Counted from the stretch's first letter, positions 7,054 to 58,693 are shown. The stretch: DNA of 64,000 nt from Escherichia phage REP2 (OQ174501.1); one strand, 5' to 3'. The notes: generated from the letters alone by a model not told the origin. Program-made: numbers and translations.

Positions 7054-7083
7054 GTTTACAAGACTGTTCTTCCGTGGTACTAT
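7054..7083 (+). promoter_or_regulatory. T4-type early promoter
   Basis: GTTTAC at 7054-7059, 18-nt spacer, TGgTACTAT with -10 at 7078-7083. Confidence 0.6.
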
Positions 7084-7111
7084 TACCCTATCAACTACGG
7101 AGGAACAGAAA

Positions 7112-7225
7112 ATGAAAAAGATTGTTAAAGCTATATGGAATGTAGTTATAATACTAATAGTTTTGAGTATATTCCCAATCGTTTTAATGATTGATGTATT
7201 AAACGCTTACTTTGGATTTATGTGA
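7112..7225 (+). CDS. Small membrane peptide (37 aa)
   Basis: ATG at 7112 preceded by GGAGG; translation MKKIVKAIWNVVIILIVLSIFPIVLMIDVLNAYFGFM. Confidence 0.4.
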   Translation: MKKIVKAIWNVVIILIVLSIFPIVLMIDVLNAYFGFM

Positions 7226-26845: not shown

Positions 26846-26875
26846 GTTTACATCCTTGTCCTTCCATGGTACTAT
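26846..26875 (+). promoter_or_regulatory. T4-type early promoter
   Basis: GTTTAC at 26846-26851, 18-nt spacer, TGgTACTAT. Confidence 0.6.
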
Positions 26876-26918
26876 ACAACTATCAGCAATACTGCTGATA
26901 ATTAAAGAGGAAAATAAT

Positions 26919-27149
26919 ATGGCTAAAGTTGATATTGACATCGTTGATTTTGAATATATTGAAGAAATTATTCGTAATCGTTATCCTGAACTTAGTATCA
27001 CAAGTATTCACGATGATCCCAATTATTGCAATTTTTCTATTGTCATTGAAGGTCCTCTTGAAGACCTCACCCGCTTTATGGCTAATGAATATTGTGATGG
27101 TATGGATTCTGAAGACGCAGAATTTTACATGGGATTGATTGAACAATAA
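26919..27149 (+). CDS. Hypothetical acidic protein (76 aa)
   Basis: ATG at 26919 after AAAGAGGAAAA; the listed start at 26856 lies inside the promoter. Confidence 0.5.
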
Positions 27150-30695: not shown

Positions 30696-30975
30696 ATACA
30701 AATCCGACTTTGATGTTAATATTCACCGCGGTACATTTTGGGGAAATTACGTCGGTAAAGATGCTGGCAGCCGAGAGGCTGCCATTGAATTATTCAAAAA
30801 AGATTTTATACGTCGAATTAAATCCGGAGAAATAACTAAAGCACATTTAGAGCCTTTACGTGGAATGAGGCTAGGATGCACATGTAAACCAAAGCCGTGT
30901 CATGGTGATATAATAGCTCATATAGTTAACCGATTGTTTAAAGACGATTTTCAAGTTGAGGACTTATGCAATTAA
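30649..30975 (+). CDS. DUF4326-like protein (108 aa)
   Basis: Motifs FWGNYVG...RE.A...F and [20 protein letters not shown] match the DUF4326 signature as I recall it; overlaps the previous ORF by 47 nt, so its start is uncertain. Confidence 0.4.
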
Positions 30976-32399
30976 TTAATGTTATCAAAAGTAGTGGTGT
31001 TTCTCAGAGCTTTGACCCGCAAAAAATTATTAAAGTTTTATCTTGGGCAGCTGAAGGAACATCTGTAGATCCTTATGAATTATATGAAAATATTAAATCA
31101 TATCTCCGTGATGGAATGACCACTGATGACATTCAGACTATTGTCATTAAGGCTGCTGCGAATTCTATTTCAGTTGAAGAGCCTGATTATCAATACGTAG
31201 CTGCACGCTGTTTAATGTTTGCTCTTCGTAAGCATGTTTACGGGCAATATGAACCACGTTCATTTATTGACCATATTTCTTACTGTGTAAATGAAGGTAA
31301 ATATGACCCCGAATTATTGTCAAAATATTCAGCAGAAGAAATTACATTTTTAGAATCAAAAATTAAGCACGAACGGGATATGGAATTTACTTATTCCGGG
31401 GCGATGCAATTAAAAGAAAAATATCTAGTTAAAGATAAAACCACTGGTCAAATTTATGAAACTCCACAGTTTGCATTTATGACTATTGGAATGGCATTGC
31501 ATCAAGATGAACCTGTTGATAGATTAAAACATGTTATTCGTTTTTATGAAGCAGTATCTACTCGACAGATTTCACTGCCAACTCCTATTATGGCTGGTTG
31601 CCGTACTCCGACTCGACAGTTCAGTTCATGCGTTGTTATTGAGGCAGGAGATTCATTGAAGTCTATCAATAAGGCTTCCGCTTCGATTGTTGAATATATC
31701 TCTAAACGCGCTGGAATTGGTATTAACGTTGGTATGATTCGTGCTGAAGGTTCTAAGATTGGCATGGGTGAAGTACGCCATACTGGTGTTATTCCTTTTT
31801 GGAAACATTTTCAGACTGCAGTTAAATCATGTTCACAGGGTGGAATTCGTGGCGGCGCTGCTACTGCTTATTATCCTATTTGGCATTTGGAAGTTGAAAA
31901 TCTTCTTGTTTTGAAAAATAACAAAGGCGTAGAAGAAAACCGCATTCGTCATATGGATTATGGTGTTCAACTGAATGATTTGATGATGGAACGTTTTGGA
32001 AAGAACGATTACATTACTTTGTTCAGTCCCCATGAAATGGGCGGAGAGCTTTATTATTCTTATTTTAAAGACCAAGACCGTTTCCGTGAATTGTATGAAG
32101 CCGCAGAAAAAGACCCTAATATTCGTAAAAAGCGTATTAAAGCTCGTGAACTATTTGAATTGCTCATGACTGAACGCTCAGGAACAGCAAGGATTTATGT
32201 ACAGTTCATTGATAATACGAATAACTATACTCCATTTATTCGTGAAAAGGCACCTATTCGTCAGAGTAACTTGTGCTGTGAAATTGCTATTCCAACAAAT
32301 GACGTGAATAGCCAACAAACCCGTTTAATCAAAATTAAGAAGTCGGATGTAGCTAAGTTTTATGAAGCTAATCCTGGCGGTATAATTCAAAGCAAATAA
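30966..32399 (+). CDS. nrdA: Ribonucleotide reductase alpha subunit, N-terminal piece (477 aa), truncated by insertion
   Basis: ATP-cone N-terminus and class I core up to the active-site segment SNLCCEIAIPTNDVN; then 29 unrelated codons and a stop. Confidence 0.85.
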   Translation: MQLINVIKSSGVSQSFDPQKIIKVLSWAAEGTSVDPYELYENIKSYLRDGMTTDDIQTIVIKAAANSISVEEPDYQYVAARCLMFALRKHVYGQYEPRSFIDHISYCVNEGKYDPELLSKYSAEEITFLESKIKHERDMEFTYSGAMQLKEKYLVKDKTTGQIYETPQFAFMTIGMALHQDEPVDRLKHVIRFYEAVSTRQISLPTPIMAGCRTPTRQFSSCVVIEAGDSLKSINKASASIVEYISKRAGIGINVGMIRAEGSKIGMGEVRHTGVIPFWKHFQTAVKSCSQGGIRGGAATAYYPIWHLEVENLLVLKNNKGVEENRIRHMDYGVQLNDLMMERFGKNDYITLFSPHEMGGELYYSYFKDQDRFRELYEAAEKDPNIRKKRIKARELFELLMTERSGTARIYVQFIDNTNNYTPFIREKAPIRQSNLCCEIAIPTNDVNSQQTRLIKIKKSDVAKFYEANPGGIIQSK

Positions 32400-33150
32400 A
32401 GTACACAGACCGTTAATAAATAATCCATAACAAGAGGAAAAGTTATGGATTATTCTAAAATTTACAATAACCTTATTTCTAAAGCTAAGAACAGAAAATT
32501 AGATTGCTATACCGAATCACACCATATTATACCTCTGTGTATTGGTGGTTCTGATACAAAGGAAAACCTGGTAGATTTGACACCCGAAGAGCATTACATA
32601 GCTCATCAATTATTAGTAAAGATATATCCAGATAATCATAAATTGGTATTTGCCGCTAATATGATGTGTGTTTATTCTGAAGATAATATTGAACGAAAGA
32701 ACACCAATAAACGCCATGGGTGGCTTAGAAGAAAATTGGCTATTTCTGTATCTGAAAATAATAAAGGCAAACCAGCTTGGAACAAAGGTATTCCGGTAAC
32801 TGACGAGCATAGAGAAAAACTTCAAACAACTTGGGTATTTACTTTCCCGGACGGTCATGAAGAAATCCATAAAGGCCTAAGAGAATTTTGCGAACTACAT
32901 TCACTCAATGCTTCGGCAATGTCGGCCGTATGCAAAGGCAAAAGGTCTCAACATAAAGGCTTTAAGTGTCGAAAGCTTGATAATATCTCTGAAAACGATA
33001 ATCAAGAATACGTCAGTAAACCTCATCCAAAGGGATTAAAACCCCATAACTTAATTGCTGTAAAAATAAACGGTATAGAATATCAATCAATACATCGAGC
33101 ATCTAAAGCTCTAGGAATATCTCGAAAAAAGGTAGAAGAATTAAATGAAT
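32310..33150 (+). mobile_element. Homing-endonuclease gene insertion splitting nrdA (about 0.84 kb)
   Basis: Segment between the last conserved NrdA codon (about 32309) and resumption of NrdA-like sequence (about 33151) carries only a free-standing HNH endonuclease ORF. Confidence 0.5.
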
Positions 33151-33155
33151 ATTGA
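32445..33155 (+). CDS. HNH homing endonuclease (Mob-like, HNH plus NUMOD/HTH modules)
   Basis: N-terminal HNH motif (ESHHIIPLCIGGSDTKENLVDLTPEEHYIAH), NUMOD3-like KPAWNKGIPVTDEHREKL, C-terminal HTH-like segment; own RBS AAGAGGAAAAG. Confidence 0.8.
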   Translation: MDYSKIYNNLISKAKNRKLDCYTESHHIIPLCIGGSDTKENLVDLTPEEHYIAHQLLVKIYPDNHKLVFAANMMCVYSEDNIERKNTNKRHGWLRRKLAISVSENNKGKPAWNKGIPVTDEHREKLQTTWVFTFPDGHEEIHKGLREFCELHSLNASAMSAVCKGKRSQHKGFKCRKLDNISENDNQEYVSKPHPKGLKPHNLIAVKINGIEYQSIHRASKALGISRKKVEELNEY

Positions 33156-34134
33156 TTATGAATTTGTAGATGAATTTTACGAAGATGATGAGTATACAAC
33201 AATACAAGTTATTGAAAACAAAGGTGAAGTGGGCCTCTGTACTCTCTCTGCATTCGTACTGGATAATTTTGACTGGCAAGACCAAGATAAAATTAATGAA
33301 TTGGCAGAAGTCCAGGTTCGTGCTCTTGATAATCTTTTGGATTACCAAGGATATCCAGTTCCTGAAGCAGAAAAAGCTAAAAAGCGTCGTAACCTCGGTG
33401 TAGGTGTTACTAACTATGCAGCTTGGTTGGCAAGTAACTTTGCTTCTTATGAAGATGCTAACGATTTAACACATGAACTATTTGAGAGATTACAGTATGG
33501 ACTCATTAAAGCATCCATTAAACTCGCCAAAGAAAAAGGACCTTGTGAATATTATTCAGACACTCGTTGGTCTCGAGGCGAATTACCTATCGACTGGTAC
33601 AATAAAAAGATTGACCAAATCGCAGCTCCAAAATACGTTTGTGACTGGTCGTCGCTGCGGGAAGACCTTAAGCTCTTTGGCATCCGTAATAGCACATTAT
33701 CAGCACTTATGCCATGTGAGTCATCTTCCCAAGTTTCTAACAGTACAAACGGTATCGAGCCTCCACGTGGACCAGTCTCTGTTAAAGAATCAAAAGAGGG
33801 CTCCTTTAATCAAGTCGTGCCCAATATTGAGCATAACATAGACCTTTATGATTATACATGGAAATTAGCTAAGAAAGGTAATAAACCTTATCTTACGCAG
33901 GTAGCTATTATGCTGAAATGGGTTTGTCAATCAGCTTCGGCGAATACATACTATGACCCCCAAATCTTCCCTAAAGGCAAGGTTCCAATGTCAATAATGA
34001 TTGATGACCTTTTGTATTTCTGGTATTTTGGCGGAAAAAATTTCTATTATCATAATACCCGTGACGGTTCTGGTACTGATGATTATGAAATAGAAACTCC
34101 AAAAGCTGAAGATTGTTCATCCTGTAAATTATGA
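33145..34134 (+). CDS. nrdA: Ribonucleotide reductase alpha subunit, C-terminal piece (329 aa)
   Basis: Begins MNIDYEFVDEF... and continues with GEVGLCTLSAF and the conserved C-terminal CxxC tail; ATG overlaps the endonuclease stop. Confidence 0.85.
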   Translation: MNIDYEFVDEFYEDDEYTTIQVIENKGEVGLCTLSAFVLDNFDWQDQDKINELAEVQVRALDNLLDYQGYPVPEAEKAKKRRNLGVGVTNYAAWLASNFASYEDANDLTHELFERLQYGLIKASIKLAKEKGPCEYYSDTRWSRGELPIDWYNKKIDQIAAPKYVCDWSSLREDLKLFGIRNSTLSALMPCESSSQVSNSTNGIEPPRGPVSVKESKEGSFNQVVPNIEHNIDLYDYTWKLAKKGNKPYLTQVAIMLKWVCQSASANTYYDPQIFPKGKVPMSIMIDDLLYFWYFGGKNFYYHNTRDGSGTDDYEIETPKAEDCSSCKL

Positions 34135-34185: not shown

Positions 34186-35364
34186 ATGAGCACAGTTTTT
34201 AATACAAATCCAGTTGATGTTTTAAAAGAACCTATGTTTTTTGGTTCAGGTCTTGGTATTGCGCGTTATGATATTCAACGTCATAAAGTTTTTGAAGATT
34301 TAACCGAAAAGCAGTTGTCATTTTTCTGGCGTCCTGAAGAAGTAAACTTAATGATGGATGCTGCACAGTTTAATAAGCTTCCTCAATATCAGCAGAATAT
34401 TTTTACTAATAATCTGAAGTATCAATCACTTCTGGATAGCATTCAGGGTCGTGCACCGTCTGCTGTACTTATGTCGTTAATTTCAGACCCAAGTCTTGAT
34501 ACATGGGTTGCTACATGGACTTTTAGTGAAACTATTCACAGTCGTTCATACACTCATATTATGCGAAATCTTTATACTGATCCGTCAAAGGTATTTGATG
34601 AGATTGTATTAGATAAAGCTATCATGAAACGTGCTGAATCTATTGGTCGTTATTATGATGATGTTCTGGTTAAGACGCGCGAATGGGAAAATGCAAAAGA
34701 AATTTTTAAATGTTTTTCCGAAAATGAATATGATTTAGATGCATATTCAAATAGTCTTATGCATGTGGAAGAATGTAAATATGCATTGATGAAGTCGCTT
34801 TATCTCTGCCTTCATGTTATCAATGCCCTGGAAGCTATTCGTTTTTATGTATCCTTTGCATGTACTTTCAACTTCCATAAAAATATGGAAATCATGGAAG
34901 GTAATGCGAAGATTATGAAATTCATTGCTCGAGACGAACAACTCCACCTTAAAGGCACCCAGTATATTATTCGTCAGCTCCAACTTGGCACTGATGGTGA
35001 TGAATGGGTTAAAATTGCCAAAGAGTGTGAACAAGAAGCAGTTGATATTTTCATGGAAGTTAACCGCCAAGAAAAAGATTGGGCAGTTCATTTATTTAAA
35101 GATGGCGATGTTCCTGGATTAAATACAAATAGCATGTGGAGCTTTATTGATTACTTAACTGTGTCTCGTATGAAACAGTGTGGTCTTCCATGTCCAATTA
35201 CCGATGCTCCGGTTAAACATCCATATCCTTGGATTCGTGAATACCTTAATTCTGATAATGTTCAATCCGCGCCGCAAGAAGTAGAACTGTCATCTTATCT
35301 TGTTGCACAGATTGATAATGATGTTGATGATAAAGTTATGATGAGTTTTAAAAAATATTTTTAA
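34186..35364 (+). CDS. nrdB: Ribonucleotide reductase beta subunit (uninterrupted, no intron)
   Basis: 392 codons as a single ORF with ferritin-like R2 motifs; T4 NrdB about 388 aa after splicing. Confidence 0.9.
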   Translation: MSTVFNTNPVDVLKEPMFFGSGLGIARYDIQRHKVFEDLTEKQLSFFWRPEEVNLMMDAAQFNKLPQYQQNIFTNNLKYQSLLDSIQGRAPSAVLMSLISDPSLDTWVATWTFSETIHSRSYTHIMRNLYTDPSKVFDEIVLDKAIMKRAESIGRYYDDVLVKTREWENAKEIFKCFSENEYDLDAYSNSLMHVEECKYALMKSLYLCLHVINALEAIRFYVSFACTFNFHKNMEIMEGNAKIMKFIARDEQLHLKGTQYIIRQLQLGTDGDEWVKIAKECEQEAVDIFMEVNRQEKDWAVHLFKDGDVPGLNTNSMWSFIDYLTVSRMKQCGLPCPITDAPVKHPYPWIREYLNSDNVQSAPQEVELSSYLVAQIDNDVDDKVMMSFKKYF

Positions 35365-35391: not shown

Positions 35392-36979
<1,588 letters not shown>

Positions 36980-36982
36980 GCT

Positions 36983-37012
36983 GTTTACAAGTCCCTCGTG
37001 TTGTGTTATAAT
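36983..37012 (+). promoter_or_regulatory. T4-type early promoter (alc), part of a duplicated promoter-leader module
   Basis: GTTTAC at 36983-36988, 18-nt spacer, TATAAT at 37007-37012; about 52 of 58 nt identical to 52823-52880. Confidence 0.6.
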
Positions 37013-37043
37013 AATCTTACTGACATAACATGAGGACTTTATA

Positions 37044-37547
37044 ATGGATTTGCAGCTTATTACTACTGAGATGGTCGTTGAAGCATACGGTGATACTACA
37101 GATGGGATTTCTGTATTCAAAGGAAATCGTCGAGTTGGATATATCACCGATCTTAAGAAAGATTTAGCTAAGCAAGTCAAGCGGAAAACTACCATTAAAG
37201 AATATCGAAATCGTCGTCTTGAGCAAGCCCGCGATATGCTTCCTGATGCGGTTGAAGAGATGAAAGTCTTTTTAGAAAATCAACTCGCTAAGTATGAGTG
37301 CGAAGTGTTCATTAATCAGACTCAGCCCAATGTTCATATCAATAGCTGTAAATGCTATATCATCGTTAATCCTTTGACTGGAAAGCATCGTCTTGGAATT
37401 AGTAATCCAAATCGTAGTGCATCGGATATGGCAGAAGATGTTGAGGCATGCTTTAAAATTTCTAAATCTCCGGCTGAACATCATATTTTAATTAACGGTC
37501 TTTCTCAAGACGATATTGTAGAGGTTATTAAAACTTTATGCATGTAA
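37044..37547 (+). CDS. alc: Alc (host transcription unfolding/termination on cytosine DNA)
   Basis: 167 codons as in T4 Alc; position after rnlA. Confidence 0.85.
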   Translation: MDLQLITTEMVVEAYGDTTDGISVFKGNRRVGYITDLKKDLAKQVKRKTTIKEYRNRRLEQARDMLPDAVEEMKVFLENQLAKYECEVFINQTQPNVHINSCKCYIIVNPLTGKHRLGISNPNRSASDMAEDVEACFKISKSPAEHHILINGLSQDDIVEVIKTLCM

Positions 37548-37891
37548 GTAATTTTACAGCTGGATTGCTATTACTTGTAATAGCATTTGGCGGAACATCT
37601 ATTATTTTAAAAAATAAGGTAGAAAGATTAGAAACATCAGTTACTGAAATTACAAAAACGGCCAATGAAAACGCCTTAGCATTAAATAATTTACGAATTC
37701 AGTATAATTATATTGATGCGATGAATAATAAAAATCGTGAGGCGATTGCTGCTATTGAGCGTGAAAATGAAAAACTGCGCAAAGACGCAAAGAAGGCGGA
37801 TGTGGTGGCTCGTAAGCCAGGATTGGTTGAAAAACAAATCAACAACTCCTTCAACAAGTTCGCAGAAGACATCCAGGACCTTTCTAAATGA
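37538..37891 (+). CDS. Hypothetical membrane-anchored coiled-coil protein (117 aa)
   Basis: N-terminal transmembrane segment (TAGLLLLVIAFGGTSIIL) followed by a charged helical region. Confidence 0.5.
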   Translation: MHVSNFTAGLLLLVIAFGGTSIILKNKVERLETSVTEITKTANENALALNNLRIQYNYIDAMNNKNREAIAAIERENEKLRKDAKKADVVARKPGLVEKQINNSFNKFAEDIQDLSK

Positions 37892-38187
37892 TTAAACTAT
37901 CAGCAGTAATATTATCTATTGGTCTTCTAGTTGGTTGTTCGACAAAGCCTCTAGAAGTAAAGAAAGAAACAGTTCATCCTAATTGGCCTGTACAAATAAA
38001 GTCATATGACGAAGCTAAACTATCTTGGCAAGTTAAAGTTATTGATGGTAAAGCTTGGGTCGGTATGCCATTTGAAGATTCTCAGGAATTTCGTATTTGG
38101 CTTAATGATGTAAAACGATATGTACACGACCAGAAAACTATGATATGTTATTATCGTCAAGAGTTAAAAGAGGATAAATGTAAATGA
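37888..38187 (+). CDS. Putative lipoprotein (99 aa)
   Basis: Signal peptide with lipobox (AVILSIGLLVGCST). Confidence 0.5.
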   Translation: MIKLSAVILSIGLLVGCSTKPLEVKKETVHPNWPVQIKSYDEAKLSWQVKVIDGKAWVGMPFEDSQEFRIWLNDVKRYVHDQKTMICYYRQELKEDKCK

Positions 38188-40302: not shown

Positions 40303-40332
40303 GTTTACTTTACGGTAGAGTTGTGATATTAT
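40303..40332 (+). promoter_or_regulatory. T4-type early promoter with palindrome flanking the -10
   Basis: GTTTAC at 40303-40308, TATTAT at 40327-40332; GGTAGAGTTGT and ATAGCTCTACC form an 11-bp inverted repeat. Confidence 0.55.
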
Positions 40333-40362
40333 AGCTCTACCAAAACAAACGAGGAAATTGAA

Positions 40363-40890
40363 ATGAGCGAATGGTTTGAAGAAGATAAGGTTTATCGCTT
40401 TAAAACTGGGTATAAAGATATTTTTAATGAAACTTGCGGGGCTAATAAACGAATTGCCCAGTTTATTGGGGAAAATTCATTTAAAGTAAAAATAGATCCT
40501 GCGAAAAATGTTATTAGCATTAAACGTGAAATTGATGATTGTTGGTATAAAGCTGTTGATGTAATGGGTGAATCCTATAAAGTTAGCCCGTTATTTTCAA
40601 TTGCTTATATGTTAGAATATTCTTTTTTCGAAGAAGTTCAAAAAGATGATTCTGTAAGTAAATTTGAAATTAAAACTGATAAAGAAATTAAGTGGAAAGT
40701 AGTAGGTATTACTGGTTGTATGTTCTATATCTATGCTCAAACTGATACGAAGGAAGAAGCTAAAAAGAAAGCTCTAGAATATCTTGAAGAGCATGAAGAA
40801 GGTCCGGTAATGATTACCCAAGATGCTGAATTAGTTTCTGTCAAATTAGTTAAAAATGTTGAAAGTAAGGAGCTAGGATCAACATGCTAA
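40363..40890 (+). CDS. Hypothetical protein (175 aa)
   Basis: ORF with RBS ACGAGGAAA. Confidence 0.5.
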   Translation: MSEWFEEDKVYRFKTGYKDIFNETCGANKRIAQFIGENSFKVKIDPAKNVISIKREIDDCWYKAVDVMGESYKVSPLFSIAYMLEYSFFEEVQKDDSVSKFEIKTDKEIKWKVVGITGCMFYIYAQTDTKEEAKKKALEYLEEHEEGPVMITQDAELVSVKLVKNVESKELGSTC

Positions 40891-43842: not shown

Positions 43843-43872
43843 GTTTACAGTATGGTTCCTTTGTGATAGTAT
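43843..43872 (+). promoter_or_regulatory. T4-type early promoter
   Basis: GTTTAC at 43843-43848, 18-nt spacer, TGaTAGTAT. Confidence 0.55.
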
Positions 43873-43899
43873 TATCTTACACAAACAAAGGAGAATAAA

Positions 43900-44232
43900 A
43901 TGAAAACGATTAATCTGAACGCTGCAGTTAAAACTAAATGCTTCAATGGTAAATATGATGAAACTATGTGGTTCTTAATGGCAGTTGAAGGTGATATTAT
44001 TGAAGTAGAAACAACAGAAGGTATGGGAACAGATTTCACCTTTACAATTCAAGTTCATAATTTCTTTACTGGTTGGATTTATGAATTGAATACAGTAATC
44101 GTTGGAAAAATTGAACAAAATGAATTAGGTGAATGGTATTATGTTACAGCTCGCCAACGTGCCGAACGCTTAATTGAGAAGATGAAAAAAGTTGGTAAAC
44201 TTGATATGCAGCATTGGAAAGTAGTAAAATAA
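43900..44232 (+). CDS. Hypothetical protein (110 aa)
   Basis: ORF with RBS AAGGAGAA. Confidence 0.5.
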   Translation: MKTINLNAAVKTKCFNGKYDETMWFLMAVEGDIIEVETTEGMGTDFTFTIQVHNFFTGWIYELNTVIVGKIEQNELGEWYYVTARQRAERLIEKMKKVGKLDMQHWKVVK

Positions 44233-44234
44233 TT

Positions 44235-44263
44235 GTTTACTTTGGTACAGGATATGATATTAT
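44235..44263 (+). promoter_or_regulatory. T4-type early promoter with palindrome GGTACAGG/CCTGTACC flanking the -10
   Basis: GTTTAC at 44235-44240, TATTAT at 44258-44263; 8-bp inverted repeat at 44244-44251 and 44267-44274. Confidence 0.5.
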
Positions 44264-44287
44264 ATACCTGTACCGCAATTAAACATC

Positions 44288-44665
44288 TTGGAGAATAAAA
44301 TGAACTACATCAACTTTGAACGTAAATATGTTTCTAATGGTATTGCAGGTTCTATTGATACTATTTGCCTTTGGAAACATCAAAATGGATCAGTATGCGA
44401 AATTGAACAGTATATGACTCCTAACTACGTTTATATGCGATTTGAAAACGGTATCACGGTTTCAATCACAATGGAAGGTTCCAACTTCAAAATCGCTCTG
44501 GATGATGATTTTCGTCAACGCGATTTAGGGACCCATCCTTGCTGGAATGGCGCTAATCGTAAGCTTCTGGTTAAAACTTGGATTCGTCATATTTTGAGTA
44601 ACAGAGCTAAACCTGAGCATCTTGAAGCAATCTTTGATGTAGTTCTTAACGAATTTGATATTTAA
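44288..44665 (+). CDS. Hypothetical protein (125 aa)
   Basis: ORF with RBS GGAGAA. Confidence 0.5.
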   Translation: MENKMNYINFERKYVSNGIAGSIDTICLWKHQNGSVCEIEQYMTPNYVYMRFENGITVSITMEGSNFKIALDDDFRQRDLGTHPCWNGANRKLLVKTWIRHILSNRAKPEHLEAIFDVVLNEFDI

Positions 44666-48614: not shown

Positions 48615-48640
48615 AAAGGCCTTCGGGCCTTTAATTTTAT
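48615..48640 (+). terminator. Terminator-like hairpin AAAGGCC-TTCG-GGCCTTT plus AATTTTAT
   Basis: Perfect 7-bp stem with UUCG loop and a short T-rich tail. Confidence 0.6.
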
Positions 48641-48645
48641 AAATA
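48638..48645 (+). promoter_or_regulatory. Late promoter TATAAATA (alt)
   Basis: Exact TATAAATA about 24 nt upstream of the alt ATG. Confidence 0.65.
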
Positions 48646-48668: not shown

Positions 48669-50762
48669 ATGGAACTTATTACAGAATTATTTGACGAAGA
48701 TACTACTCTTCCGATTACAAACTTAAATCCAAAGAAGAAAATACCACAAATTTTTTCAGTTCATGTTGATGATGCAATTGAACAACCAGGCTTTCGTTTA
48801 TGTACCTATACATCTGGAGGTGATACTAATCGTGATTTAAAGATGGGCGATAAAATGATGCACATTGTTCCTTTTACATTAACTGCTAAAGGTTCAATTG
48901 CTAAATTAAAAGGTCTTGGTCCAAGCCCGATTAATTATATCAATTCAGTTTTTACTGTTGCAATGCAAACAATGCGTCAATATAAAATTGATGCCTGTAT
49001 GCTTCGTATTCTTAAGTCTAAAACCGCCGGTCAAGCTCGACAAATTCAACTTATTGCTGATAGACTCATCCGCAGTCGTTCAGGTGGCAGATACGTCCTT
49101 CTTAAGGAACTCTGGGATTACGATAAAAAGTATGCATATATTCTTATACATCGTAAAAATGTATCACTAGAAGACATTCCAGGAGTTCCAGAAATTAGCA
49201 CCGAGCTTTTTACTAAAGTTGAATCGAAGGTCGGTGATGTTTATATCAATAAAGATACTGGAGCTCAAGTAACCAAAAATGAGGCAATTGCTGCATCTAT
49301 TGCACAAGAAAATGATAAACGTTCTGACCAAGCCGTAATCGTTAAAGTTAAAATTTCCCGTAGAGCAATTGCACAAAGTCAGTCATTGGAATCTTCTAGA
49401 TTTGAAAGTGAATTATTCCAGAAGTATGAATCTACAGCAGCTAATTTTAATAAACCAGCTACTGCACCTTTAATTCCCGAAGCAGAAGAAATGAAAATTG
49501 GAATTAATTCATTAGCTTCTAAAACAAAGGCAGCAAAAATTATTGCTGAAGGAACGGCAGATGAACTTCACTATGATTATAAATTCTTTCCAATGAGTCA
49601 AGTCGGTGAAGTTTCAGAAAAAATTAAAGAAGTAATTTTTAATGCAATTAAAAATGAACCAACTACTTCAATAAAATGTTTAGAGAAATACGCAGCAGCT
49701 GTAAATCAATTCTTTGAAGATTATAAAGATAAATGGCTTGCTAATCATAATAAAAATCGTAAAGGACAACCAGATGAAGTCTGGGAAGAAATAACTAAAA
49801 ATTCCTGGAACGCAGCAAAAACTAAATTCCTCAAACGAATGATTTACAGTTTTTCTGGAATTGGTGCTGGTCCAATGATTGATATTACTATTGCCCGCGA
49901 TGGTTCTAAATATACTCCATCACAAAAGCGTGGCATTAGAGAATATTGCGGTTCAGGATATACTGACATCAATAATCTTCTTTTAGGTCGTTACAATCCA
50001 GAACGATACGATGTAATGAGTGAAAAAGAAATTGAATCTGCTATAAATAACTTAGATTCAGCTTTTGAAAATGGTGACCGTATACCAGAAGGCATTACAG
50101 TTTATCGTGCTCAAAGTATGACTGCTCCTATATATGAAGCGTTAGTTAAAAATAAAGTGTTCTACTTCAGAAATTTTGTATCTACTTCTTTAACTCCTAT
50201 CATTTTTGGACGTTTTGGAATCACACATGCTGGTATTGGTCTTTTAGAACCAGAAGCTCGTAACGAATTAACAGTTGATAAAAATGAAGAAGGAATAACT
50301 ATTAATCCAAACGAAATAAGAGCGTATAAAGAAAATCCTGAATATGTTAAAGTTCAAATAGGATGGGCAATTGATGGAGCTCATAAAGTTAATGTTGTAT
50401 ATCCAGGAAGTCTCGGAATAGCAACAGAAGCTGAAGTTATTCTACCACGCGGATTGATGGTCAAGGTTAATAAAATAACTGATGCTTCTAATAATGACGG
50501 AACAACATCTAATAATACAAAACTCATTCAAGCTGAAGTTATGACCACGGAAGAGCTCACCGAATCGGTAATCTATGATGGAGACCATTTAATGGAAACT
50601 GGTGAATTGGTTGCAATGACAGGTGATATTGAAATAGAAGACAGAGTTGACTTTGCATCATTTGTTTCATCAAATATTAAACAGAAAGTAGAATCATCTC
50701 TTGGAATTATTGCGTCTTGCATAGATATTACAAACATGCCTTACAAGTTCGTTCAAGGATAA
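48669..50762 (+). CDS. alt: Alt-type ADP-ribosyltransferase (head-packaged, injected)
   Basis: 697 codons; N-terminus MELITELFDEDTTLPITNLNPKKKIPQIFSVHVDD... matches T4 Alt as recalled; R-S-E type motifs (VYRAQ, FVSTSL, EAEVILPRG). Confidence 0.85.
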   Translation: MELITELFDEDTTLPITNLNPKKKIPQIFSVHVDDAIEQPGFRLCTYTSGGDTNRDLKMGDKMMHIVPFTLTAKGSIAKLKGLGPSPINYINSVFTVAMQTMRQYKIDACMLRILKSKTAGQARQIQLIADRLIRSRSGGRYVLLKELWDYDKKYAYILIHRKNVSLEDIPGVPEISTELFTKVESKVGDVYINKDTGAQVTKNEAIAASIAQENDKRSDQAVIVKVKISRRAIAQSQSLESSRFESELFQKYESTAANFNKPATAPLIPEAEEMKIGINSLASKTKAAKIIAEGTADELHYDYKFFPMSQVGEVSEKIKEVIFNAIKNEPTTSIKCLEKYAAAVNQFFEDYKDKWLANHNKNRKGQPDEVWEEITKNSWNAAKTKFLKRMIYSFSGIGAGPMIDITIARDGSKYTPSQKRGIREYCGSGYTDINNLLLGRYNPERYDVMSEKEIESAINNLDSAFENGDRIPEGITVYRAQSMTAPIYEALVKNKVFYFRNFVSTSLTPIIFGRFGITHAGIGLLEPEARNELTVDKNEEGITINPNEIRAYKENPEYVKVQIGWAIDGAHKVNVVYPGSLGIATEAEVILPRGLMVKVNKITDASNNDGTTSNNTKLIQAEVMTTEELTESVIYDGDHLMETGELVAMTGDIEIEDRVDFASFVSSNIKQKVESSLGIIASCIDITNMPYKFVQG

Positions 50763-50765
50763 ATC

Positions 50766-52823
50766 ATGGAACTTATTACAGAATTATTTGACGGCGCCGA
50801 AGCGCCGGTTGTTAACTTAAATCCTAAGCATAAAATACCTCAAATTTTTGCTATTCAAGCCGGTGAAGAAAGCGTTCTTCCTGGATTTCGATTTTGTACA
50901 TACACCTCTGGCGGTGATACGAATAAAAACGTTAAGCCAGGCGACAAAATGATGCATATCGTAATGATAGGTGTTAATGAGAAACTATCATTAGTTAAGC
51001 TTAAAAACTTGGGTGGAAATCCAATTGGCGTCATTAATGCTGTTTTTGATACTGCTCTTCAAACAATGAAGCAGTATAAAATTGATGCATGCCTATTCCG
51101 CGTACTAAAAAGTAAAACAAATGGCGCAGCTCGTCAAATGCAAGTTATTGCTGACCGTTTAGTACGTACTAAAGGAGCAGGTCGATATGTTCTTTTAAAG
51201 GAAATCTGGGATTATGATAAAAAGTACGCATATATTATGGTTTACCGTAAAAATGCCAATTTAGAAGACATTCCAGGTGTACCTCCTATTTCAACCGAGT
51301 TATTCACAAAAGTTGAATCAAAGGTTGGTGATGTTTATGTAGACGTTAAAACAGGTAATGCTGTTCCTAAAGCTGTTGCTGTTGCTGCTTCTATTGCTTT
51401 AGAAAATGATAAGCGCACGGATCAAGCTGTTATTCAGAAAACTAAAATTAGTCGTCGATTAGCAGCACAAGCTCAATATTCTACTGTTGATGCTTCACTT
51501 CAGGGTGATAGCTTCGCTGCTAAGAAATATCAAGAGTTTGAATCTAAAGTTCCGGTATATAAAGCAGAAGGACCAATGAACTCTGGCGTTATTCAGATTG
51601 GTTCAAACTTTAGCAAAGGAGCTATCGGTGGTATGAGAAGTGCTTCTCGTTTTAAATCTAGTGATTATGAACTCGAAAGCTTCCGAAATCATATTGCATT
51701 GGCTCATGCACGTTTACGTGATCCATCTATCAAGTTACAGAGCGATATAACATATCAAGGTTCTCAAGAATATTTAAAGAATAAAGAATTCTTTGATTAT
51801 AAAACTGATAAAATTTTAAGCGATCTTGCTGATATTAATATTTCTAATAGCTTTGATGTTATTAAGAAAATTATCAATGATTTAGTTAAAGGTTCTAAAG
51901 CTACACCAGATGAAAAGACAGCTATTATTCAATTTGTAATGAATGGAATTTATAAATTAATTGATGAATCTACTGCTCAGGCATATGAATATGCAAGCAC
52001 TGAAGTAACTCCAAAAGGATTAACTCAGGCTGAATCTGATGTAATTGAAGATTATTGCGCAGATTCATATGTTGAAATGAACTCGTTCCTTCTAGGTAAA
52101 CCTGATTCTACACGTGAAGAATATATGGAACGTGCTATTAAGCACATTGAGACGTTGGATTCTGCATTTGCTAAAGGTTCAGTTCTTCCTCCGGGAACTA
52201 CACTTTACCGTGGCCAAGAAGTTACTTTTAAAACTTTACGTCATAATATAGAAAATAAAATGTTCTATTTCAAGAACTTTGTATCTACTTCACTCAAGCC
52301 AAATATCTTCGGTGAATATGGTAAAAATTATATGGCTTTAGATGACGCTGGAACAGTATTTTCTGGTGAAGGAGAAGGTTCAGTTGATGCTGAAGATTTA
52401 ATGCATATGGGTAGTCATTCTACATATGCGAATGAAGACGCTGAAACTAATGTAGGTATGGTAATTAAAGGAGCTGAACGAGTTAAAGTTATCGTTCCAG
52501 GTCATTTATCAGGATTTCCATCCGAAGCTGAAGTTATTTTGCCGCGTGGAATTTTACTGAAGATTAATAAAGTAAGTACGTACATGATGAAAGAAACCGC
52601 TTATAATAAGTATCTAATTGAAGGCACGATTGTTCCTCCTTCTGAACAATTAGAGGAATCGGTATATGATGGTGACCATTTGATGGAAACCGGAGAAGTT
52701 CGTCCAATGGCTGGATTTAATCAATTCCTTGTAGAAGAATCAAAAGAAGAGGAAAGCGAAGTTTCTCAAATCTTAGCTTCTTTGGTTAACATCAACGGAA
52801 TGTCTAAAAAGTTCAAAATGTAG
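50766..52823 (+). CDS. Second Alt-like ADP-ribosyltransferase paralogue (685 aa)
   Basis: Same N-terminus (MELITELFD...NLNPK.KIPQIF) and same catalytic motifs (LYRGQ, FVSTSL, EAEVILPRG) as alt, with a divergent middle region; starts 4 nt after the alt stop. Confidence 0.8.
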   Translation: MELITELFDGAEAPVVNLNPKHKIPQIFAIQAGEESVLPGFRFCTYTSGGDTNKNVKPGDKMMHIVMIGVNEKLSLVKLKNLGGNPIGVINAVFDTALQTMKQYKIDACLFRVLKSKTNGAARQMQVIADRLVRTKGAGRYVLLKEIWDYDKKYAYIMVYRKNANLEDIPGVPPISTELFTKVESKVGDVYVDVKTGNAVPKAVAVAASIALENDKRTDQAVIQKTKISRRLAAQAQYSTVDASLQGDSFAAKKYQEFESKVPVYKAEGPMNSGVIQIGSNFSKGAIGGMRSASRFKSSDYELESFRNHIALAHARLRDPSIKLQSDITYQGSQEYLKNKEFFDYKTDKILSDLADINISNSFDVIKKIINDLVKGSKATPDEKTAIIQFVMNGIYKLIDESTAQAYEYASTEVTPKGLTQAESDVIEDYCADSYVEMNSFLLGKPDSTREEYMERAIKHIETLDSAFAKGSVLPPGTTLYRGQEVTFKTLRHNIENKMFYFKNFVSTSLKPNIFGEYGKNYMALDDAGTVFSGEGEGSVDAEDLMHMGSHSTYANEDAETNVGMVIKGAERVKVIVPGHLSGFPSEAEVILPRGILLKINKVSTYMMKETAYNKYLIEGTIVPPSEQLEESVYDGDHLMETGEVRPMAGFNQFLVEESKEEESEVSQILASLVNINGMSKKFKM

Positions 52824-52852
52824 TTTACAAGTCCCTCGTGTTGTGTTATAGT
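52823..52852 (+). promoter_or_regulatory. T4-type early promoter, second copy of the alc promoter-leader module
   Basis: GTTTAC at 52823-52828, 18-nt spacer, TATAGT at 52847-52852; near-identical to 36983-37040. Confidence 0.55.
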
Positions 52853-52883
52853 AGTTTTACTGACATAACATGAGGAACACAAA

Positions 52884-53174
52884 ATGAAATCTTCTTTGCG
52901 CTTTTTAGGTCAAGAACTCGTCGTTGAGGGCGTTATTCCCGCTGATAACGCTTTCAATGAAGCAGTTTATGATGAATTTATTAAAATTTTCGGAACCGAT
53001 AAAAAGTTTGGAATTTTTCCTTCTGAAAATTTTTCAAAGCCAGAACAGACTGAAAGTATTTTCCAAGGTGTAGTAACAGGTAAATTTGAGTCAGAAGCTC
53101 CGGTAAAAATTGAGGTTTATATTGAAGAAACCTCTGTTGCTTCAGTTGCTGCTTTTATTTCATTCCGTAAATAA
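52884..53174 (+). CDS. Hypothetical protein (96 aa)
   Basis: ORF with RBS GAGGAA; followed by a bidirectional terminator. Confidence 0.5.
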   Translation: MKSSLRFLGQELVVEGVIPADNAFNEAVYDEFIKIFGTDKKFGIFPSENFSKPEQTESIFQGVVTGKFESEAPVKIEVYIEETSVASVAAFISFRK

Positions 53175-53180
53175 AAATAT

Positions 53181-53198
53181 GGGGACCTTTCGGTCCCC
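53181..53198. terminator. Bidirectional terminator hairpin GGGGACC-TTTC-GGTCCCC between convergent genes
   Basis: Perfect 7-bp stem between the plus-strand ORF ending at 53174 and minus-strand gene 54 ending at 53203; A/T-rich on both sides. Confidence 0.6.
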
Positions 53199-54168: not shown

Positions 54169-55262
54169 TAGAAAGTCCCCGTATATAAAGAAGCACGGTT
54201 TAACGTAATAATCTCTCTCATAGTAATCTCGAGTGTAAAAGAACTTGGAAGGTTAGGAGCAATAGCTAATCCATTAAAGTTACCATTTGGTGTTTTATCA
54301 AATCTAATACTCTGTATTTGGCATGGACCGAATACTTCAGTCTTTCCATCAAATTTAGAAGTTGCACCAAAGTTTTTCACCATCCAAATTGTCGGGTTTG
54401 AAACTACAAGAACGTTCGTTAAACTCGATGTCATTTTTTCAAATAACGTCTTGTTTTTAATCGCGTCTTCTGGCGTTAATGGTTCAATAAATGTAGAACG
54501 ATACCACTCATCTAAATATCCTTTTATTTCAGCAGCATATTGAGATTTACCAGTTTCACCGTAAGAAAAATAGTTAAAATACTGATAGATATTAATAATA
54601 GCCATTAAATCTTCTGTTGAGCGCGGAGTTAAATCCCAAGTGAACACTTTAGTTCTATTTTCAGCACCGCCGTACATGCTTCTGGCTGTTGTATAGATCT
54701 GTTCATTATTATCAGCCATTATACCTTGTGTTATACTTTCCAACGCTCCAAATACTGCGGTTGAAGCCATATTGCTTAGAACACCAGTAGCAGTACCTCC
54801 GCCTTTTGTAATAAGACTATCTTGAACATCATTAAATCTATGTGATGACGTATCGACGTCAGATTTAGATCTAGGTAAAAGAATATTTGCAACAGGAACT
54901 TTACTTATTGTTCCTGAATTATTATCTGATATTAGTCCATTTGATAGTTTTGATACTGTATTACTGATAGTGTTTCTGGCTGTACGTAAAATACTCGAAG
55001 ATGAAGAAGAGTAGTTAGATCTCATCGTTCTAAGACTTCCAGAATCCCTAGATGACATATTGTATGCAGTAAATAATAATCCATTCTTATATAGATCTGT
55101 TACCTGGAAGTCCCCTGTAGTGTCATTACCACTAGCACGCCCAGTTGGAAACTGGGCTGTGTATGTTTTAGTTCCTACTTCTGATTTAGTACTCTGTCCG
55201 GCTGAAATTGTTTCACCGGACTTTTTAATTAAATCAGCAGTTATTTCTTTAACAATTGCCAT
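54168..55262 (-). CDS. 48: Baseplate tail-tube cap protein gp48
   Basis: 364 codons as in T4 gp48. Confidence 0.85.
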   Translation of the reverse strand: MAIVKEITADLIKKSGETISAGQSTKSEVGTKTYTAQFPTGRASGNDTTGDFQVTDLYKNGLLFTAYNMSSRDSGSLRTMRSNYSSSSSSILRTARNTISNTVSKLSNGLISDNNSGTISKVPVANILLPRSKSDVDTSSHRFNDVQDSLITKGGGTATGVLSNMASTAVFGALESITQGIMADNNEQIYTTARSMYGGAENRTKVFTWDLTPRSTEDLMAIINIYQYFNYFSYGETGKSQYAAEIKGYLDEWYRSTFIEPLTPEDAIKNKTLFEKMTSSLTNVLVVSNPTIWMVKNFGATSKFDGKTEVFGPCQIQSIRFDKTPNGNFNGLAIAPNLPSSFTLEITMREIITLNRASLYTGTF

Positions 55263-55270
55263 ATTATTCC

Positions 55271-57043
55271 TTAATTAACTCCCGTCGCACCAAATACACC
55301 AGGAGCAGTTGTGCTTGTGACAGGTGTCATATTATGAACGACAGTATTTTTCTTAATAACATTATTAGTATTATTGATTGAAGGAGATGCTTGTTGAACA
55401 GGAGCTTGTTGTGCTTTGTTCTTTTCAATCACCTGGACCTGTTTTGCCTCTGGTGATTTAGCAGAAGTTTCAGGTTTTGCTTCAGGTTGATTTTTCTTGA
55501 GCTCTTGATAAGTGGCATCAATTTTAGCAAATCTAGAAGCAAGTTCTTTTTTAACTGCTGGTGAATTATTTAAATCCGGATCATTCATTCGTTTTTTAAG
55601 GTCTTCATGAGCAGCTTCAATTGATTTAACTGTCGAGTCTTTGCTCATATCAGCTGAATCAGCGTATTTTTCAAAACGAATCATCGCAGCACGAGCTTCA
55701 TTAGCTTTCATTAAAGCATTTTTTCTTTCTTCCGGTGAAAGTTGTTTTAATTTTTCTTCTTCTGCTGCACGTTCTTCGTCAGTAGTCAATGCTTCTTTAT
55801 TATCTACACCACGAATCCAGTTAGATGCACGAGTTTTCCAGTTCGCAATTTTGTCTAATCCTTTTGCTATTGGGCCAAGATCATCATTCATTCGTTTATC
55901 TTGATAATTTGCTACTTTTTCTTGGTCTTCTTTATTAAGAGATGCTCCAGTAGAATTTTGGAAATTTTCTAATGCTCTTCCTTCTACTTCATCAGCAGTA
56001 TCCTTCATGCCAGGAATGACTCGAAGAATTGCTGCAGATAATTTAGCCATACCTAATTGAATAAGCTCTCCTAAATTATAAAGAACACTTCCAAGCCCTT
56101 CAACAATAGCTACTGTCAATCCGCCCCAATCTCCAGCTTCCCAAAGTTGTTTAATTTTATCAATAGAATCAAAGATGCTCTGTAATAAAGGACCCCATGT
56201 TCCGGTTTCGCTAGAGAATTTAGTAAAATCAGTGCTAAATAAATCCCAGGCTTTTGAAAATTTATCTGACCAGTATTTAAAATGAACCATCAGCAGGTCT
56301 ATTCCAATAACAACAGCCATTATCAATGCAACCATTTTAGCAGCTTCAATAGCAGCACTGACGGTATACTTAAATAGCATGCTAGATATTTTATCAGTAA
56401 TTGAAATAGATTTCTTAAATCCGAAATCAACTGTCTTTGTTAATTTATCTAAAGCTTGAGATAATTTTAAGTTAAATGCGTCTCTTTTTTGCTTCTCTTC
56501 TGGAGACTCTTGTTTTGGTTCAATTGGCTGAGGAGTAGGGAAAAAATCAGCATCAGGATCATTATTAACTGCTTCAGGAGCCGGTAATAAAGGACCCACA
56601 GATTCAGCTGTATCATCCTCGACGACTTTAACAGGAATAGCATTTTCGACTACTGCTAAACTCGTTCCAGTTTGCTGAATTCCAGCTGTCTGAATTTTTT
56701 GTTCCAGTAAACTTGTTAATTTATCTAATTTGCTTCCGAGCGATTCACCGATTTCTTTATTAATATTGTTTCCAATTTCAACAGTTTCAGCAATTAACTC
56801 AGAACCGGCAGTAGTATCACTTACTGCGCTTTCAACGTTATCAATTGCTCCAACTATTTCATTTGATTTTTCTTCAACAGTCTGAGCTATTAATTCAGAA
56901 GCAGCTTGAGCATCATCTAATTTTGTAGAAATGTCATTAAGACCAGATAAAGTATTAGAAGCGGATTTAGCCGCGTCCTGTGTTGGTTTATTATCTGAAA
57001 TAACTTTTCTACGCATCGTTTGCATTTCTTGTGGCTTTTTCAT
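55271..57043 (-). CDS. 29: Baseplate hub / tail-length determining protein gp29
   Basis: 590 codons as in T4 gp29. Confidence 0.85.
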   Translation of the reverse strand: MKKPQEMQTMRRKVISDNKPTQDAAKSASNTLSGLNDISTKLDDAQAASELIAQTVEEKSNEIVGAIDNVESAVSDTTAGSELIAETVEIGNNINKEIGESLGSKLDKLTSLLEQKIQTAGIQQTGTSLAVVENAIPVKVVEDDTAESVGPLLPAPEAVNNDPDADFFPTPQPIEPKQESPEEKQKRDAFNLKLSQALDKLTKTVDFGFKKSISITDKISSMLFKYTVSAAIEAAKMVALIMAVVIGIDLLMVHFKYWSDKFSKAWDLFSTDFTKFSSETGTWGPLLQSIFDSIDKIKQLWEAGDWGGLTVAIVEGLGSVLYNLGELIQLGMAKLSAAILRVIPGMKDTADEVEGRALENFQNSTGASLNKEDQEKVANYQDKRMNDDLGPIAKGLDKIANWKTRASNWIRGVDNKEALTTDEERAAEEEKLKQLSPEERKNALMKANEARAAMIRFEKYADSADMSKDSTVKSIEAAHEDLKKRMNDPDLNNSPAVKKELASRFAKIDATYQELKKNQPEAKPETSAKSPEAKQVQVIEKNKAQQAPVQQASPSINNTNNVIKKNTVVHNMTPVTSTTAPGVFGATGVN

Positions 57044-57573
57044 TCAAATAATCCAATAATATTGCCAATTCCGGTTATTGGACCATTAGGGCCAGGAATT
57101 GCTAAAGTTGTAGAAATATCATTTGCCCATTTTAAAACAAATGCTGGCATCTCAAGAAAATTAATTTCTTTAACTTCATCATTGACCTTAAGCAAGCATT
57201 TGGATAACATATCGCTTACAGTTAAAAATTGTTCAAATTTTCCAGGAGGTCTAAAATAAAATGTATTTCCTTGGTATTGAAATTCCAATCTTTGACATAC
57301 ATAAACGTCATTAATATCATAAGTATAACCATCTATTTCTTTACGAGATTTAATCTTTCCATTAAATTCTAGCAAATGAATAGAAACGAAATCAACTTCT
57401 GCCGGTGATAAATTTGGACAAATAGAATCAATAAGAAGCTTTAAATTTTCATCAGGACCTTTAACATCTTTTAAAATGTTATAATGTTTAAGACCCATCT
57501 TAGGAATAGAAACTTCTTTATTACTTATCGGAAGAACTACTTTCTTCAGTGGTAGTATCAGTTTTAAATTCAT
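57040..57573 (-). CDS. 28: Baseplate hub distal subunit gp28
   Basis: Starting at the internal Met ([11 protein letters not shown]...) gives 177 codons as in T4 gp28; overlaps the gene 27 3' end. Confidence 0.75.
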
Positions 57574-58693
57574 TTTTAACCTTAACTGGGTCGATTGTTT
57601 CCAGTTTCGTTGCATTAGTGAACATATATAGATGAGTTACTGAATTATTATTGGATAATTCATGGATAACTTCATCAACGTAAAATTCTGTTTTAAATTG
57701 GTTTTTACTATCATTAAAAATAATTTTAACGCCAGGAGTCAAGTTAAAATTACCGACAGTAGAACATTTAGCATAGCCATCGTATTGTGCCATAGTTTGA
57801 AGACGAATAGCTTCTTCATAGCCATTCCTATAAGTCATTTCAGAATAAGCACCTGACCTTGACACTACAATAGAGTTTTCGCCCTTTCCTGTAGTAATCA
57901 TTGGCAATGAAGAATCTAAAAATGAATGAGCATAGATAGTAGCATTTTTCATTGGGTCGCGTTTATGAGGATTCGATTTAGTCAACCAAACGAAATCATA
58001 TGCTAATGGATATTTTAATTCTTGGATGAATTGACCTATTAAAGATGGCTCACCGACAATCATTGGATACGGTTCTTGATTTATCATCATATCATAGTCC
58101 ATCATGTTAACTCCCATGATGTCTTGCCATACAAATACAAATTTGTCACTTCCTACAGCTAGAGCAACTTCTCTGACATACGACAAATAGTTTTCAAATG
58201 TGCTAGTCCATGGAATATCAGGAACATAAGCATTTATAGCATTTATTGCTGGAGTTAATAACGTGCGATCCTGATAAATGACACCAAGCATTTCCTTTAT
58301 AGATTCGCCTGCATCAGAGAAAAACGGTCTGCCAAATTTAAGATTTTCTATAGAATGAATAGTTCCCAATTCAATAGCAATGATGTTATCACCCTTTGAA
58401 TCTACCGATACGGAAAAGTGCTTACATCCATAAATTCGTGTTTTAACATTATTAATATCGTTTGCATTAGCTACAGAAATCTGAATTATTTCATTTCCAT
58501 CCATTTTTGTATGGATATTTTTAGAATCATAAAACTGCAGCATTCCTTCATTTCGACCATAAAGAGAATCCCGCATAGTTAATGTGGTAATAGTAGCAGC
58601 TAATTCAACAAATCTATTATTACTCCAAGCGTCATAACTCTCAAATAATTTAACGCTGAGATTTGGATATCCGGGGCGTTGCAACATACTCAT
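57521..58693 (-). CDS. 27: Baseplate hub subunit gp27
   Basis: 390 codons (T4 gp27 about 391). Confidence 0.85.

Follow-up and report, generated by a model that had tools for sequence, protein, structure and literature searches.

A predicted hairpin between the early-promoter spacer and the Shine-Dalgarno sequence of alc in T4-type phages, and its possible role as a translational gate on read-through RNA

In phage T4, a number of genes are known in which the ribosome binding site is hidden on RNA that was initiated upstream. According to reviews, the Shine-Dalgarno sequence (SD) or the AUG is sequestered in this way in e, soc, 49 and I-TevI, and also in I-TevII, I-TevIII, mobE and segB; for gene e, reviews put the effect of the hairpin at about 100-fold and describe the structure as conserved among relatives. 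In e, soc, 49 and I-TevI, the promoter embedded in the structure is a late (TATAAATA) or a middle promoter, and the genes are silent early and on late. The gene alc is absent from the sequestered T4 genes named in the reviews, and an earlier notice of its hairpin in the older T4 literature is possible.

A second group of related elements is represented by the promoter-early stem-loop (PeSL) cassettes of T4-type phages (Arbiol et al. 2010, PMC2839356; Comeau et al. 2014, PMC4122927). Their stem-loops have been read as terminators or attenuators, and PMC2839356 never mentions translation; since PeSL stem-loops reduce downstream expression in a transcriptional fusion, termination or attenuation is indicated. 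The alc locus described here shares with the PeSL cassettes an upstream stop codon, a sigma-70-like early promoter, an overlapping stem-loop, an SD and an ATG within a short intergenic region. PeSL copies are also repeated in the genome and exchangeable between loci, and the two copies found here, at alc and at alt.-3, fit this description. PeSL stems are, however, compact and situated entirely 5' of the start (in PST/T4, directly before the promoter), whereas the alc helix spans the -10 element and the start. The 3' arm of the alc helix is the SD, and a stem reaching the SD falls outside the five PeSL subclasses that have been described.

Like intrinsic (Rho-independent) terminators, the alc element has a stable stem-loop where a gene ends; its identity as such a terminator was rejected, as there was no match in the terminator scan, no conserved U-tract, and a large loop or internal loops in most clades. 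Work by Repoila and colleagues in 1994 reportedly described conserved 70-bp intercistronic early-promoter repeats at the internal-protein loci of T-even phages. Like these repeats, the elements analyzed here are near-identical early-promoter intergenic blocks that are repeated in T-even genomes and implicated in shuffling; the Repoila repeats are located at ipI and ipII-III, whereas the present copies are located at alc and alt.-3. We know of no claim of SD masking for the T-even 70-bp repeats.

The window analyzed here is a stretch of 64,000 nt from Escherichia phage REP2 (OQ174501.1), a Tequatrovirus, and coordinates refer to the whole of this stretch. Positions 36600-37400 are 100% identical to Escherichia phage REP3 (801 bp) and 94.8% identical to T4, and sequence comparison showed that in T4 this region spans the junction from the last part of rnlA (gene 63) into the first part of alc. 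The rnlA gene is co-oriented with alc and located upstream of it, with its stop codon at 36977-36979. The features of the junction are as follows.

35855 to 36979, + strand: rnlA (RNA ligase 1, gene 63), from the ORF list and the T4 and REP3 annotation
36983 to 36989, + strand: -35 element GTTTACA of a T4-type early (sigma-70) promoter, from the consensus scan; the GTTTAC hexamer is 36983-36988
36989 to 37011, + strand: 5' arm of the predicted hairpin (promoter spacer and most of the -10 element), from the folds
37004 to 37012, + strand: extended -10 element TGtTATAAT, from the sequence and the consensus scan; TG is 37004-37005 and TATAAT is 37007-37012
37012 to 37016, + strand: loop TAATC of the predicted hairpin, from the fold
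37017 to 37039, + strand: 3' arm of the predicted hairpin, from the folds
37017 to 37021, + strand: predicted transcription start, about 37019 (6-8 nt past the -10 element), from promoter geometry
37032 to 37036, + strand: alc SD GAGGA, 7 nt before the ATG, from the sequence
37044 to 37547, + strand: alc (inhibitor of host transcription), Pfam PF17527, from the ORF, the annotation and Pfam (E = 2.5e-92); the ATG is at 37044

By the consensus scan, the alc promoter is a near-consensus T4-type early promoter (11/12 matches, extended -10 element, and a spacer of 17 bp with the hexamer taken as TTTACA), and the early transcript of alc would start near 37019. The original prediction had named the GTTTAC -35 element, the TATAAT -10 element, two complementary 9-mers and the GAGGA of the alc SD, and all of these were found at the stated positions. 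The pairing that it had proposed between the promoter spacer and the SD region of alc was also borne out, as CCTCGTGTT (36994-37002) is complementary to AACATGAGG (37027-37035) with one G-U wobble.

The minimum-energy fold of this region is a hairpin of about 21 bp, reaching from 36989/36990 to 37038/37039; its stem is interrupted by two bulges of one base each, and its loop has 5 nt. The hairpin core (51 nt) has a folding energy of -21.4 kcal/mol (z = -6.5, with 0/200 shuffles as stable), the energy was between -21 and -23 kcal/mol across folds, and the hairpin was retained when folded in contexts of 141 nt to 360 nt, with 60-300 nt of upstream sequence added. The hairpin encloses the -10 element and the predicted start and buries the alc SD; an anti-SD, CC(C)TC, is found at 36993-36997 inside the 5' arm, and the 3' arm makes up the whole 5' UTR, SD included, of alc mRNA started at the promoter. 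No Rfam family matched in 36000-38000 at E <= 1.

Because the predicted start near 37019 lies in the apical part of the hairpin, RNA initiated at the promoter would be without the whole 5' arm and unstructured, and its predicted fold has an energy of -3.2 kcal/mol (z = -0.3; range 0 to -3). The predicted mean probability that the alc SD is unpaired is 0.023 on the read-through RNA and 0.72 on the short RNA. The prediction of a closed SD on the long RNA holds regardless of upstream context, starts from 37017 to 37021 all yield an equally open SD, and the alc AUG is predicted to be mostly open in both RNA forms. Structure prediction therefore agrees with the earlier proposal that promoter-started RNA leaves the alc SD free and that a stem sequesters it on read-through RNA (P unpaired 0.02); the stem length of 9 bp given in that proposal was not upheld, as the stem is actually about 21 bp.

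The same physical principle is thus found at alc as at e, soc, 49 and I-TevI: in the same phage family, the SD is in a predicted helix on the long RNA, and the RNA of the internal promoter would be without the 5' arm. This is the part of the proposed parallel with e, soc and 49 that stands. Unlike in these genes, the promoter embedded at alc is an early sigma-70 promoter, and the anti-SD is written into the spacer between the -35 and -10 elements; no TATAAATA late promoter was found on the + strand within 500 nt of the alc element. Since the embedded promoter is an early one, the timing would be reversed compared with e, soc and 49, with alc on at once and masked on later read-through RNA, and in its temporal logic the parallel does not hold.

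Homologues of Alc were found in >1,100 phage records, and the rnlA-alc junctions of 12 divergent GenBank phages and 45 IMG/VR contigs provided 47 distinct leaders for comparison. GTTTAC was found in 42/47 of these alc leaders, representing many genera; the distance between promoter and alc ATG is 60-64 nt in 39 of these 42 leaders and 67-70 nt in the three Acinetobacter-type ones. Pairing between spacer and SD, with differing stem sequences, was found before alc in about a dozen Straboviridae clades, including Tequatrovirus, Gelderlandvirus, Karamvirus, Jiaodavirus, Roskildevirus, Dhakavirus, Marfavirus, Winklervirus and further (uncultured) clades from IMG/VR. The layout is shared among them: GTTTACA is directly followed by the anti-SD, the apical part holds the -10 element and the start, and the 3' arm has the SD at its base. 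The stems (5' arm / 3' arm) upstream of alc in six of these genera are the following.

Gelderlandvirus alc stem: UCUCCGUUU / AAACGGAGA
Karamvirus alc stem: UCUCCAUUUGGUU / AACCAAAUGGAGA
Jiaodavirus alc stem: UCCUCGUCAG / CUGAUGAGGA
Roskildevirus alc stem: UCUCCUCAG / CUGAGGAGA
Marfavirus alc stem: CCUCGUUUGUU / AACAAACGAGG
Winklervirus alc stem: UCCUCAUUUCGUU / AACGAAAUGAGGA

Folding of the clade leaders gave -14 to -26 kcal/mol for the long forms and values near 0 for the short forms. In an alignment-free swap test, the mean duplex energy was -14.2 kcal/mol when each spacer was combined with its own UTR, compared to -8.5 kcal/mol for cross-clade combinations, and the observed total duplex energy was reached in 0/20,000 permutations. 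A MAFFT alignment of 13 in-register leaders had 86% of cells paired, compared to 36-47% with slid partners, and contained 15 compensatory cells where 6.3 were expected (0/500 shuffles were as high). In a covariance-model alignment of 34 distinct leaders, which as a structure-guided alignment is biased towards structure, 90% of cells were paired, compared to 35-54%, and compensatory changes were found in 14/17 pairs. Since the alc hairpin is conserved with compensatory changes across many phage genera, it is not a chance fold. RNAalifold found no structure in a plain MAFFT alignment of all 37 leaders, which can be attributed to the start of the 5' arm, varying from 0 to 3 nt past the -35 element by clade, and to the inclusion of non-conforming leaders.

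The accessibility of the SD was also compared to that in composition-matched spacer shuffles. A binary criterion, pairing of the SD with bases located before the start, gave 15/23 clade representatives against a null of 57% (p = 0.30); because this criterion was not discriminating, the unpaired probability of the SD was used instead. By this measure, the SD is predicted to be closed on the long RNA (P unpaired <= 0.002) in 12/23 clade representatives, and in these same 12 it is more closed than in at least 95% of the shuffles and open on the short RNA (0.43-0.92). It is thus stability and accessibility, and not simple pairing of the SD, that beat the composition-matched shuffles.

In Tegunavirus, in L037 and in the Acinetobacter phages, the hairpin over the -10 element ends a few bases short of the SD and leaves it free, and L008 and L038 have no hairpin. 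These exceptions indicate that SD masking is not universal and that the hairpin may have another primary role. The design is also absent from L051-L053, and in Gaprivervirus a terminator and a local SD hairpin replace the GTTTAC cassette. The Gaprivervirus junctions (L006, L025, L026 and L054) carry an extra short ORF between rnlA and alc, which is annotated as a second 'inhibitor of host transcription' and is preceded by the terminator-like hairpin AAAGGGGTGTACAAGCCCCTTCTTTCT and the local SD hairpin. The alc SD contains GGAG in several genera (L004, L003, L010 and other leaders), and the Tequatrovirus alc SD, GAGGAC, is without it. GGAG is the target of the RegB endoribonuclease; on read-through RNA it would be double-stranded, and so possibly protected.

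A second copy of the alc cassette was found elsewhere in the window, between a gene for an Alt-like ADP-ribosyltransferase and alt.-3.

52823 to 52886, + strand: second cassette copy, before alt.-3, from sequence match and folding; -35 element 52823-52828, -10 element TATAGT 52847-52852, hairpin 52831-52878, SD 52872-52876, ATG 52884
52884 to 53174, + strand: alt.-3 coding sequence (DUF5498), from annotation and Pfam

The two copies are 94% identical exactly from the -35 element to the SD (52823-52876), where they differ at 3/54 nt, and their flanks are unrelated; in T4, the two copies differ at 1/54 nt. The second copy folds alike (-23 kcal/mol). In the alt.-3 orthologues of six other genera, synteny and the GTTTACA promoter are kept, and the leaders show no pairing between spacer and SD, only a small, compact and PeSL-like intra-spacer hairpin (CCACA...UGUGG). 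As the second copy is Tequatrovirus-specific and absent from the alt.-3 leaders of these six genera, sequence comparison places the ancestral site of the SD-capturing cassette at alc, from where the Tequatrovirus lineage gained a copy at alt.-3. The lack of the design at alt.-3 orthologues elsewhere also limits its generality across genes. BLAST with the Karamvirus alc cassette identified 2-3 places per genome. These were considered as exact duplicates and rejected, since the exact stem pair occurs only once per contig, so the extra places are partial, probably promoter, matches.

Two full-length paralogues encoding Alt-like ADP-ribosyltransferases lie in tandem at about 48669-52823 of the window; in T4, the second paralogue is degraded to alt.-1/alt.-2. 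A late-promoter motif, TATAAATA, is present at 48638-48645, before the first alt paralogue, and a terminator at 53181-53198, downstream of alt.-3, and late alt RNA would run into alt.-3 up to this terminator. At this site, where alt.-3 and gene 54 converge, there is a perfect GC-rich hairpin (GGGGACC-TTTC-GGTCCCC), which probably terminates transcription in both directions and is given as a terminator in the annotation of some relatives. In some relatives, similarity ends about 20 nt before the alt.-3 cassette, which places a recombination breakpoint near it. Moreover, the record MG010123.1 (L002), labelled 'Staphylococcus phage SAJK-IND' (UNVERIFIED_ORG), is a mislabelled Tequatrovirus fragment that carries the second copy, and it annotates alt.-3 as 'prohead core scaffold protein'.

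Further cassettes were searched for among all early-type promoters in the window and with a covariance model built from non-Tequatrovirus alc leaders only. Two of those identified by promoter scan, fold and covariance model are listed here.

7054 to 7114, + strand: cassette before a 37-aa ORF, with a 14-bp stem between spacer and SD
43843 to 43902, + strand: cassette before gene 30.8, with the stem TTCCTTTGT / ACAAAGGAG

The cassette before the 37-aa ORF has a folding energy of -22.7 kcal/mol, and the predicted probability that its SD is unpaired is 0.001 on the long and 0.75 on the short RNA. For the gene 30.8 cassette, which is the best match of covariance model R1 and lies upstream of a gene matching Pfam Phage_30_8, the respective values are -12.1 kcal/mol, 0.005 and 0.91. 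A weaker cassette with pairing of spacer and SD is located at 26846-26921, before a 76-aa ORF that is probably frd.3, judging by its position. Each of these three cassettes has its own stem sequence. At 40303-40365 and 44235-44302, a hairpin over the -10 element (-16 and -19 kcal/mol, respectively) has a 3' arm that stops short of the SD, and in the window promoter scan six early-type promoters had no hairpin. The class of hairpin seen at 40303 and 44235 is also found upstream of alc in Tegunavirus and Acinetobacter phages. In addition, a recurrent mini-hairpin in the spacer, CCAC-AAGGA-(N)GTGG, is located beside the extended -10 element of many early promoters (e.g., at 2042-2071 and 6541-6570 of the window and at about 140-175 in L069-L074). 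This mini-hairpin resembles the PeSL subclass with a stem between the -35 and -10 elements and may merely reflect the promoter consensus.

The window promoter scan found no promoter-like site directly upstream of rnlA, and the terminator scan found no terminator-like site at the rnlA-alc junction. In T4, PnrdA, PnrdB and PI-TevIII are middle promoters located further upstream in the same orientation, so RNA that spans the rnlA-alc junction would be expected at middle times. In REP3, whose nrdA corresponds to about 30966-34134 of the window (REP3 54721-57889), the annotation splits this gene into two CDSs around a homing-endonuclease gene; nrdB (34186-35364) is uninterrupted, and T4 nrdB carries the I-TevIII intron. 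In the supplement to a time-resolved omics study of T4 (PMC9697503), the RNAs of alc, alt.-3, rnlA, nrdB and nrdA are all classed as early; at the protein level, alc and alt.-3 are again early, and rnlA, nrdB and nrdA are late. These classes are consistent with a gate on translation, without being proof of it. No genome-wide map of T4 5' ends was found in the literature, and T4 RNA-seq papers on DksA and MotB mention neither alc nor rnlA.

We consider it fairly probable that the hairpin is a translational gate, such that Alc is made only from its own early transcripts and its SD is masked on read-through RNA. In this model, the 17-bp promoter spacer, which is otherwise unconstrained, would serve as the complement of the alc 5' UTR and SD. 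Polymerase starting at about 37019 would produce an mRNA without the 5' arm, the SD would be open and Alc could be made right after infection, while RNA of the nrdA-nrdB-denA-rnlA unit, from early and middle promoters, would carry both arms and form the hairpin of about 21 bp that hides the SD. Read-through RNA would then yield RnlA and little or no Alc, and synthesis of Alc would track its own early promoter and cease when early promoters are shut off. Structure prediction, strong phylogenetic covariation, the genomic context and omics data consistent with it all speak for this model, in which the position of the start, the occurrence of read-through and the magnitude of the effect on translation are inferred.

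A different role for the same hairpin, with SD masking as a by-product, seems unlikely: it could be a PeSL-type attenuator or a stabilizer of RNA 3' ends that acts on the upstream unit, where it would halt or delay polymerase reading through or shield the 3' end of processed rnlA mRNA, with the G-rich SD used as the only GC-rich sequence in an AT-rich spacer of 64 nt. Early promoters with overlapping stem-loops are what the PeSL papers report for T4-type phages, and one PeSL stem-loop was as effective as rrnB T1 in lowering lacZ from a transcriptional fusion; moreover, the hairpin over the -10 element excludes the SD in some clades, and in the Acinetobacter-type leader L058 the stem is followed by a T-run, as in a true terminator. 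However, a U-tract is not conserved, with A-rich tails found in Karamvirus, Roskildevirus, Dhakavirus, Marfavirus and the second copy, the terminator scan was empty at the junction, and the helix of most Tevenvirinae clades has the SD:anti-SD pair itself at its base, right after the -35 element. In addition, a helix of -20 kcal/mol over the SD would block initiation whichever role was selected. Processing by RNase III, or another double-strand RNase, at a site that separates the rnlA and alc messages would fit the Tequatrovirus stem of about 21 bp, roughly two helical turns, but the continuous helix of most other clades is 9-13 bp with large internal loops and thus too short for a conserved site, making this explanation extremely improbable.

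Selection could also have acted on the inverted repeat in the DNA, the RNA fold being incidental, either through cruciform or hairpin extrusion that modulates the promoter or through use of the repeat as a patch for cassette recombination. The copying of the cassette from alc to alt.-3, the similarity breakpoint about 20 nt upstream of the second copy in some relatives and the fact that PeSLs mediate recombination are in line with this explanation. The evidence from strand asymmetry is divided: in Tequatrovirus, the stem contains three G-U pairs, A-C pairs are absent, and in both copies the sense strand folds more stably than the antisense strand (-22.8 vs -14.5 kcal/mol), but wobble-type mismatches show no strand bias across clades (15 G-U vs 11 A-C; p = 0.25 for sense vs antisense folding), so the wobble asymmetry is no proof of selection on the sense RNA. 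An RNA-level, translational role is instead suggested by the outer end of the 3' arm, since the helix of most clades has precisely the SD:anti-SD pair at its base, a placement that a DNA function leaves unexplained. As stem sequences also vary by clade and by promoter, a site for a sequence-specific protein is unlikely, and we regard the DNA-level explanation as a whole as quite improbable. Translational coupling, in which a ribosome finishing rnlA would melt the 5' arm and Alc would be made in proportion to RnlA, appears very improbable. The upstream stop codon is 4-11 nt from the base of the hairpin and in many clades overlaps the -35 element (TAGTTTACA), so a terminating ribosome would there open the first pairs. 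In REP2, however, a ribosome at the rnlA stop codon would have its leading edge (+11 to +15 relative to the P site) at 36985-36989. This is just short of position 36990, where pairing begins, and far from the SD pairs, and it argues against coupling by melting; the Alc and RnlA proteins also belong to different temporal classes.

Alc is among the first weapons of T4-type phages against host transcription, and the way in which immediate-early proteins are switched off despite continued transcription of their genes in longer middle or late RNAs is understood only in part. A promoter spacer that doubles as an anti-SD would be a compact and factor-independent means of tying translation to promoter choice, and a layout of this kind could be used in synthetic biology to insulate genes from read-through. 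The proposed gate at alc suggests that PeSL-like cassettes carry translational besides transcriptional information. Whether early-promoter spacers of Tevenvirinae are systematically used as anti-SD, leaving a subset of early genes translationally insulated and silent on middle and late read-through RNA, is a tentative proposal, which we regard as possible and somewhat doubtful. If true, alc in a dozen clades, and alt.-3, 30.8 and others in Tequatrovirus, would be readable only from their own promoters. The promoter, the gate and the ribosome binding site could then be copied to a new gene together with their timing programme, and there would be a post-transcriptional contribution to the shut-off of early protein synthesis.
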